From the NCBI RefSeq assembly GCF_003334765.1, contig NZ_QOWT01000143.1: a DNA stretch of 320 bases; one strand, 5' to 3'. Shown piece by piece: positions 1-320 of this stretch. The first letter of the stretch is position 1, and every line of letters starts with the position of its first letter. The stretch comes from Escherichia coli (GTDB taxonomy: Bacteria > Pseudomonadota > Gammaproteobacteria > Enterobacterales > Enterobacteriaceae). The notes below the pieces were generated by a model, which worked only from the letters and a program-made list of their open reading frames with translations, did not search any database and was not told the origin of the DNA. Both the position numbers and the translations under genes were made by a program.

Positions 1-320
1 TGCTGAACGTCAGCGAAAAACGAAACCGCTGTTGAAATCCCTGGAAAGCTGGTTGCGTGAAAAGATGAAGACCCTGTCGCGACACTCAGAGTTGGCGAAG
101 GCGTTCGCGTACGCACTTAACCAGTGGCCGGCACTGACGTACTATGCGAACGATGGCTGGGTGGAAATCGACAACGACATCGCTGAAAATGCCCTGCGGG
201 CGGTCAGTCTGGGTCGTAAAAACTTCCTGTTCTTCGGCTCTGACCATGGTGGTGAGCGGGGAGCGCTACTGTACAGCCTGATCGGGACGTGCAAACTGAA
301 TGACGTGGATCCAGAAAGCT
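1..320 (+). mobile_element. Internal portion of an IS66-family insertion sequence (transposase gene body; element ends not in window)
   Basis: Inferred from the transposase CDS call above. IS66-family elements typically carry tnpA, tnpB and tnpC in that order, with tnpC ending close to the right terminal inverted repeat. No terminal inverted repeat or target-site duplication is visible in the window, so the element boundaries cannot be placed. Confidence 0.75.
2..320 (+). CDS. tnpC: IS66-family transposase (ORF3/TnpC-like), internal partial CDS; 5' and 3' ends outside window
   Basis: Seen in sequence: frame 2 (+) is open for 106 codons from nt 2 to nt 319 with no stop, whereas + frame 1 hits TGA at nt 4-6 and + frame 3 hits TGA at nt 39-41. 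The translation contains ...KMKTLSRHSELAKAFAYALNQWPALTYYANDGWVEIDNDIAENALRAVSLGRKNFLFFGSDHGGERGALLYSLIGTCKLNDVDPES. From established knowledge (recalled, not searched): the EIDNxIAENALR / GRKNxxFxGSxxGGE / YSLIGTCxLNxVxPE motifs are the hallmark of the C-terminal region of IS66-family transposases. Codon usage (frequent CTG, GCG, CGT, GAA, AAA) fits a gamma-proteobacterial, enterobacterial-like host. The name 'tnpC' follows the common IS66 ORF3 naming convention and is not an exact-match identification of a specific named IS. Confidence 0.85.

Follow-up and report, generated by a model that had tools for sequence, protein, structure and literature searches.

The 320-nucleotide stretch of Escherichia coli DNA analyzed here (the window) very probably forms the middle of a nonfunctional, 5'-truncated remnant of the insertion sequence (IS) ISEc8, which sits in the IS-rich flank downstream of pic in enteroaggregative-type E. 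coli. The identity of this relic, its coordinates, its junctions, its distribution, and the absence of its 5' part were observed directly. The probable assignment of the window to the relic was made by exact allele matching and turns on a single diagnostic base (G176); 320 bp alone cannot show truncation.

The original prediction described an IS66-family transposase gene across the whole window, with a single open frame that contains no frameshift or premature stop and encodes a conserved C-terminal motif block, and we found each of these features. Only frame +2 is free of stops (nt 2–319 of the forward strand, 106 codons), stops being present in each of the other five frames, and translation and alignment to intact copies (L007, L003, and L008) match it to residues 377–482 of the 512-residue ISEc8 TnpC (ISEc8 nt 1994–2313). 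The open frame by itself carries little weight: among 20,000 mononucleotide shuffles of the window (G+C content 54.7%), 8.4% also contained at least one fully open frame. Homology was decisive. The Pfam model DDE_Tnp_IS66 (PF03050; i-E = 1.9e-27) matched window residues 2–85 with its positions 200–283 of 284, which represent the C-terminal 30% of the domain (nt 5–256), and the first 14 of the 39 positions of DDE_Tnp_IS66_C (PF13817) matched residues 92–105 (nt 275–316; E = 6e-4 for this fragment). The NCBIfam profile NF033517 (transpos_IS66) aligned residues 2–105 with its positions 274–377 of 387 (E = 2e-35). The two Pfam domains match co-linearly across the translated frame, as the prediction had anticipated. 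Judged by this homology, the window encodes the tail of an IS66-family transposase, more precisely that of ISEc8 tnpC.

An exhaustive HMMER search against 1.84 billion representatives gave 19,518 relatives of the window peptide at E ≤ 1e-3, and conservation was counted in the best 150 of these relatives, as representatives at 50% identity. Nine residues (G52, N58, E62, R66, G71, F77, G79, G83, and G84) were each kept in 140–148 of the 150, so that the motif block is real. Within the D-N-N-x-A-E motif (nt 170–187), which reads D-N-D-I-A-E here, the columns are occupied by D57 in 130 representatives, N58 in 147, Asn at position 59 in 128, A61 in 134, and E62 in 146. The near-invariant Glu (E62, codon GAA at nt 185–187; TnpC E438) is the putative third residue of the DDE triad, to judge from its conservation and from what is known of the family. 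No IS66 transposase was detectable by sequence among solved structures. A noncoding RNA reading of the window was rejected after a search of both strands against Rfam (E ≤ 1) gave no match.

The window is identical to intact ISEc8 tnpC (L007, L003, and L008) at 319 of 320 bases (99.7%), and the single difference is at position 176. Megablast found matches to the window in 3,734 of 5,426 complete E. coli genomes, and a plasmid search found them in 1,927 of 72,556 records, mostly from Escherichia, Klebsiella, and Salmonella; the 99.7% matches fall within genes with the RefSeq name “IS66-like element ISEc8 family transposase.” The reference complete ISEc8 lies on the E. coli plasmid p14EC007b (L007:1508–3949, 2442 bp) and has the organization tnpA-tnpB-tnpC, terminal inverted repeats (IRs) that read GTAAGCGTACAGC ... 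on the left and ... GCTGTACGCTTAC on the right, and a TnpC of 512 aa with the Pfam domains LZ_Tnp_IS66 (a leucine zipper; residues 39–110), zf-IS66 (DNA-binding; 119–161), DDE_Tnp_IS66 (the RNase-H-like catalytic domain; 175–461), and IS66_C (468–505; E = 3.4e-16). According to ISfinder, GTAAGCG is the terminus typical of the IS66 family; in this analysis, only ISEc8 and ISEc43 showed it. IS66-family elements generate an 8-bp target-site duplication, a figure that reportedly goes back to Han and colleagues in 2001. The flanks of the reference copy (AACCTTCT versus GACCGCTC) contain no matching 8 bp. In E. coli E2865 (L003:225–3412), ISEc8 tnpC is annotated as intact and is slightly longer than usual (1,572 bp); it directly follows and overlaps the transposase gene of the ISL3-family element ISEc38, with no tnpA or tnpB between them. 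This ISEc8, too, is disrupted, yet its tnpC continues to be called intact.

The relic beside pic comprises 492 bp of the 3' end of ISEc8 (about nt 1951–2442), at L001:5958–6449 in the extended locus, and contains TnpC codons 362–512 (the final third of the catalytic domain plus IS66_C), the stop codon, and the right terminal IR. Homology to ISEc8 starts at L001:5958, 43 nt before the start of the window at L001:6001. The relic shares its frame, its 3' end, and its right IR with the ISEc8 copies of p14EC007b and of EHEC and UPEC chromosomes, but it lacks ISEc8 nt 1 to ~1950, which hold the left IR, tnpA, tnpB, and tnpC codons 1–361. Thus 70% of the coding sequence of the gene is gone, and with it the LZ and zf-IS66 domains and ~65% of the DDE domain, of which the last ~100 residues, including the conserved Glu, remain. 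Upstream lies nothing but ISEc43, whose own tnpA and tnpB are on the opposite strand, and only the right one of the two GTAAGCG terminal IRs is present. The scores against NF033517 were 122.6 bits for the window peptide and 139.3 bits for the longest ATG open reading frame (ORF) of the relic, both below the equivalog cutoff of 180 bits, and 460.3 bits for intact TnpC. By these scores, the relic is a fragment of an IS66-family member and not a complete transposase.

At the left junction, ... GGCTTTACGCTTAC on the left meets CCATAGAGG on the right, and the left side, when reverse-complemented, reads as the GTAAGCG... end of ISEc43. This IS66-family element lies on the strand opposite to the relic, with its own tnpA and tnpB following, and its terminal IR directly abuts the start of the relic. 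ISEc43 belongs to the same family as ISEc8 and has the same tnpA-tnpB-tnpC organization and GTAAGCG termini, but its tnpC is only ~70% identical in DNA to ISEc8 tnpC, its orientation is opposite, and the window is not part of it. If the window belongs to the relic, the sequence directly 5' of it would be ... GGCATTGGCTTTACGCTTAC followed across the junction by CCATAGAGGCGGATATAAGGGGAATGCCGGCAGAGCAGCGGCT, whereas an intact element would give ... GAGCAGATCGGTCAGTTGTACGCCATAGAGG... in the same place. At the right junction, the right IR of ISEc8 (... GCTGTACGCTTAC, L001:6437–6449) abuts a C-terminal fragment of an IS256-family transposase (Transposase_mut; the last 72 codons, L001:6450–6693). Because this fragment begins exactly at the right IR, ISEc8 probably inserted originally into an IS256-type element that was already present downstream of pic. 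The SPATE mucinase gene pic, convergent with the relic, has its 3' end ~0.4 kb beyond.

These junctions bear on the claim that the gene is intact over this stretch and free of decay, which stands inside the 320 bases but fails for the gene as a whole, truncated at its 5' end 43 nt upstream of the window. Followed upstream, the frame enters ISEc43 sequence and is closed within ~75 nt, with a GTG at L001:5927 as the ORF start; an extended frame closed by stops had been named in advance as grounds for doubting the prediction, and that doubt is borne out in part.

The same truncation was seen in every related locus compared. All 26 related loci keep only ISEc8 nt 1947/1951–2442, and ISEc8 nt 1–1946 were absent from all 26 within up to 6 kb of flank on each side. 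In every copy inspected, RefSeq flags the 453-bp coding sequence as a pseudogene (“incomplete; missing N-terminus”), and in all five exact-match genomes that were opened (042, 55989, FORC_069, H3, and HSP425) the window falls within this pseudogene. The IS66 pseudogene downstream of pic (EC042_RS24510 in EAEC 042, EC55989_RS16850 in 55989, and its counterparts in relatives) is 100% identical to the window and has the same junctions with ISEc43 and the IS256 fragment, with no detectable difference between the two. Most probably, the window is a piece of this annotated pseudogene or an allele-identical copy of it in an unsampled strain.

The distribution of the exact allele points the same way. 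Matches to the window at 100% identity occurred in exactly 16 records among the 5,426 complete E. coli genomes, and all 16 of these accessions matched the upstream-junction query at 100%; this query was found at full length in 34 of the 5,426 genomes. The relic ORFs, which we looked up by exact sequence as 143 aa (from an ATG) and 161 aa (starting at a GTG within the end of ISEc43), were present in 138 and 134 index blocks, respectively, and all 18 further assemblies listed show pic together with the ISEc43 junction and IS256 flank described above. A 45-mer centered on G176 was absent from 100,044 species-representative genomes and present in two metagenome contigs, both of which contain the relic junctions. 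We think it unlikely that the window instead comes from an intact, transposition-competent ISEc8 whose tnpC carries N435D. Such an origin would fit the open frame throughout the window and its 99.7% identity to thousands of intact ISEc8 tnpC genes on E. coli chromosomes and plasmids, but every exact match is the truncated relic: no intact ISEc8 with G176 was found among the 16 complete genomes, 18 other assemblies, and two metagenome contigs that carry the allele, and the 72,556 plasmids contained no 100% match. The residue itself also argues against an active source, in that Asn is kept at this position in most family representatives and the only other Asp occurs in a frameshifted fragment. 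An unsampled genome could still harbor an intact ISEc8 with G176, which leaves a small uncertainty in the assignment to the relic.

The history of the locus can be reconstructed only by inference, and we propose the following order of events. ISEc8 would have inserted into an IS256-family transposase gene, and ISEc43 would then have landed inside ISEc8 tnpC in the opposite orientation. The 5' part of ISEc8 (left IR, tnpA, tnpB, and 361 tnpC codons; 1,950 bp) would subsequently have been lost, most simply through an ISEc43-associated deletion or through recombination between ISEc43 copies, and the remaining fossil would have drifted, with individual lineages gaining point changes of their own, such as G176 (N435D). 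We rejected the simpler reading that ISEc8 is merely interrupted by ISEc43, as no ISEc8 sequence lay on the far side of ISEc43 within up to 6 kb of flank and the flanks of ISEc43 are not a target duplication. In the two loci where ISEc43 is complete (L014 and L016, each at 3437–5977; 2,541 bp), its 8-bp outer flanks are CCATAGAG versus TAATAGTC or CAATAACA. The far flank depends on the strain (GGAGTAATAGTC at L014:3425–3436 versus CTGACAATAACA at L016:3425–3436), and neither version matches the 8 bp beside the near end, a pattern that suggests rearrangements anchored at ISEc43. The IS110-family element ISEc45 breaks ISEc43 in 042-type strains, and in two large genomes (GCA_014216555.1 and GCA_014216475.1; 5.8–5.9 Mb) only a terminal ISEc43 stub of ~107–109 bp is left (L020:~5907–6031 and L023:~5905–6031, respectively). 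The stub adjoins IS1 or type VI secretion system (Hcp/VgrG) genes in these genomes, and the relic and pic are unchanged; these stubs mark further, independent erosion of the scaffold. The locus has the character of a typical nested IS graveyard.

Relics of different lineages carry private substitutions, of which G176 is the one that marks the sub-lineage of the window. At this position the codon for residue 59 is GAC (Asp) where ISEc8 has AAC (Asn), and the resulting change (N59D in the window, N435D in TnpC) falls in the conserved D-N-N-x-A-E motif, three positions ahead of its near-invariant Glu. Asp at this position recurs in just one of the 150 representatives, the frameshifted fragment P0096. 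The original prediction saw no sign of decay in the visible portion, which holds for stops and frameshifts but overlooks this missense change at a site conserved in 128 of 150 representatives, which is a weak signal of decay. G176 is found in the 042/55989 group, a synonymous C262 in O104:H4 C227-11, and A248 (G83S) in AST81, and other relic lineages have synonymous changes at positions 79 and 295; the relics of O104:H4 C227-11 and AST81 keep A176. In all, the relic diverges from active ISEc8 by only 0.4%.

Two comparisons between relics concern the later history of the locus. The relics of 55989 (L002) and O104:H4 C227-11 (L009) differ at 2 of 320 bases (G176 and A262 versus A176 and C262), and the neighboring ISEc43 tnpC is truncated by ISEc45 in 55989 and intact in O104:H4. 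We take these two strains to be close relatives, and if they are, the differences suggest that a relic underwent gene conversion with further ISEc8 copies or that the island was exchanged. A sister relic lies beside iha in E. coli AR_0069 (NZ_CP020055.1, L011:2501–2992); it is 97% identical and frameshifted. It has the same internal breakpoint (ISEc8 nt ~1947/1951–2442), and both its left and its right flank differ from those of the pic-linked relic. Where the break occurs, ISEc8 reads TTGTACGCC, which is similar to the IR core TGTACGC. A shared breakpoint with unlike flanks could reflect a common ancestor that was later rearranged, or a recombination hot spot.

With its 5' part gone, the relic would be unable to transpose or to make transposase, and it is probably not expressed. 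For active ISEc8 copies at other genomic sites, it would provide at most 492 bp of homology and one IR. An ORF of 143–161 codons is nevertheless still intact and is called by gene callers, and we therefore considered whether its product might be expressed and retained in a domesticated role, modulating IS66-family transposition in trans (for example, as a dominant-negative fragment), or whether the right IR and ISEc43 might help to mobilize the pic module; we regard either as very improbable. The 161-codon GTG ORF, which reads out of the ISEc43 end, and the 143-codon ATG ORF are unbroken across many lineages, the right IR is intact, and pic is surrounded by IS elements and has been suggested to be readily mobile (PMC9387333). 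Against these points, a promoter scan around the relic (L001:5700–6900) found no promoter-like site, and the nearest Shine-Dalgarno-like bases are poorly spaced (GAGG at 14 nt and AGGGG at 1 nt from the ATG). Relic lineages have missense changes at conserved positions (N59D and G83S), the sister relic beside iha has lost its frame, and youth, not selection, accounts for the low divergence. There is equally scant likelihood that, in EAEC, O104:H4, and other lineages, ISEc43 read-out expresses the C-terminal fragment of TnpC beside pic as a truncated-transposase inhibitor of ISEc8 and IS66-family transposition, or that its right IR takes part in one-ended mobilization of the pic module. Regulation of pic by the relic was rejected, as the relic is convergent with pic and sits past its 3' end, with the pic promoter on the opposite side of the gene.

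The relic is an ordinary IS fossil that was already known as a RefSeq pseudogene in the flank of a published virulence gene, in keeping with the prediction that the element is of a common, well-described type; a published drawing of the pic locus in EAEC 042 shows IS110 and IS66 elements on its flanks (PMC9387333, Figure 1a). As a routinely annotated fossil it has little biological weight. It does illustrate that an open, well-conserved frame in a short window is no proof of an intact mobile-element gene, because the truncation here lies 43 nt outside the window. Together, G176 and the ISEc43/ISEc8 junction precisely mark the pic-linked IS scaffold in genomes of the EAEC/O104:H4 type, and they could serve in typing or in tracing the movement of the pic module.
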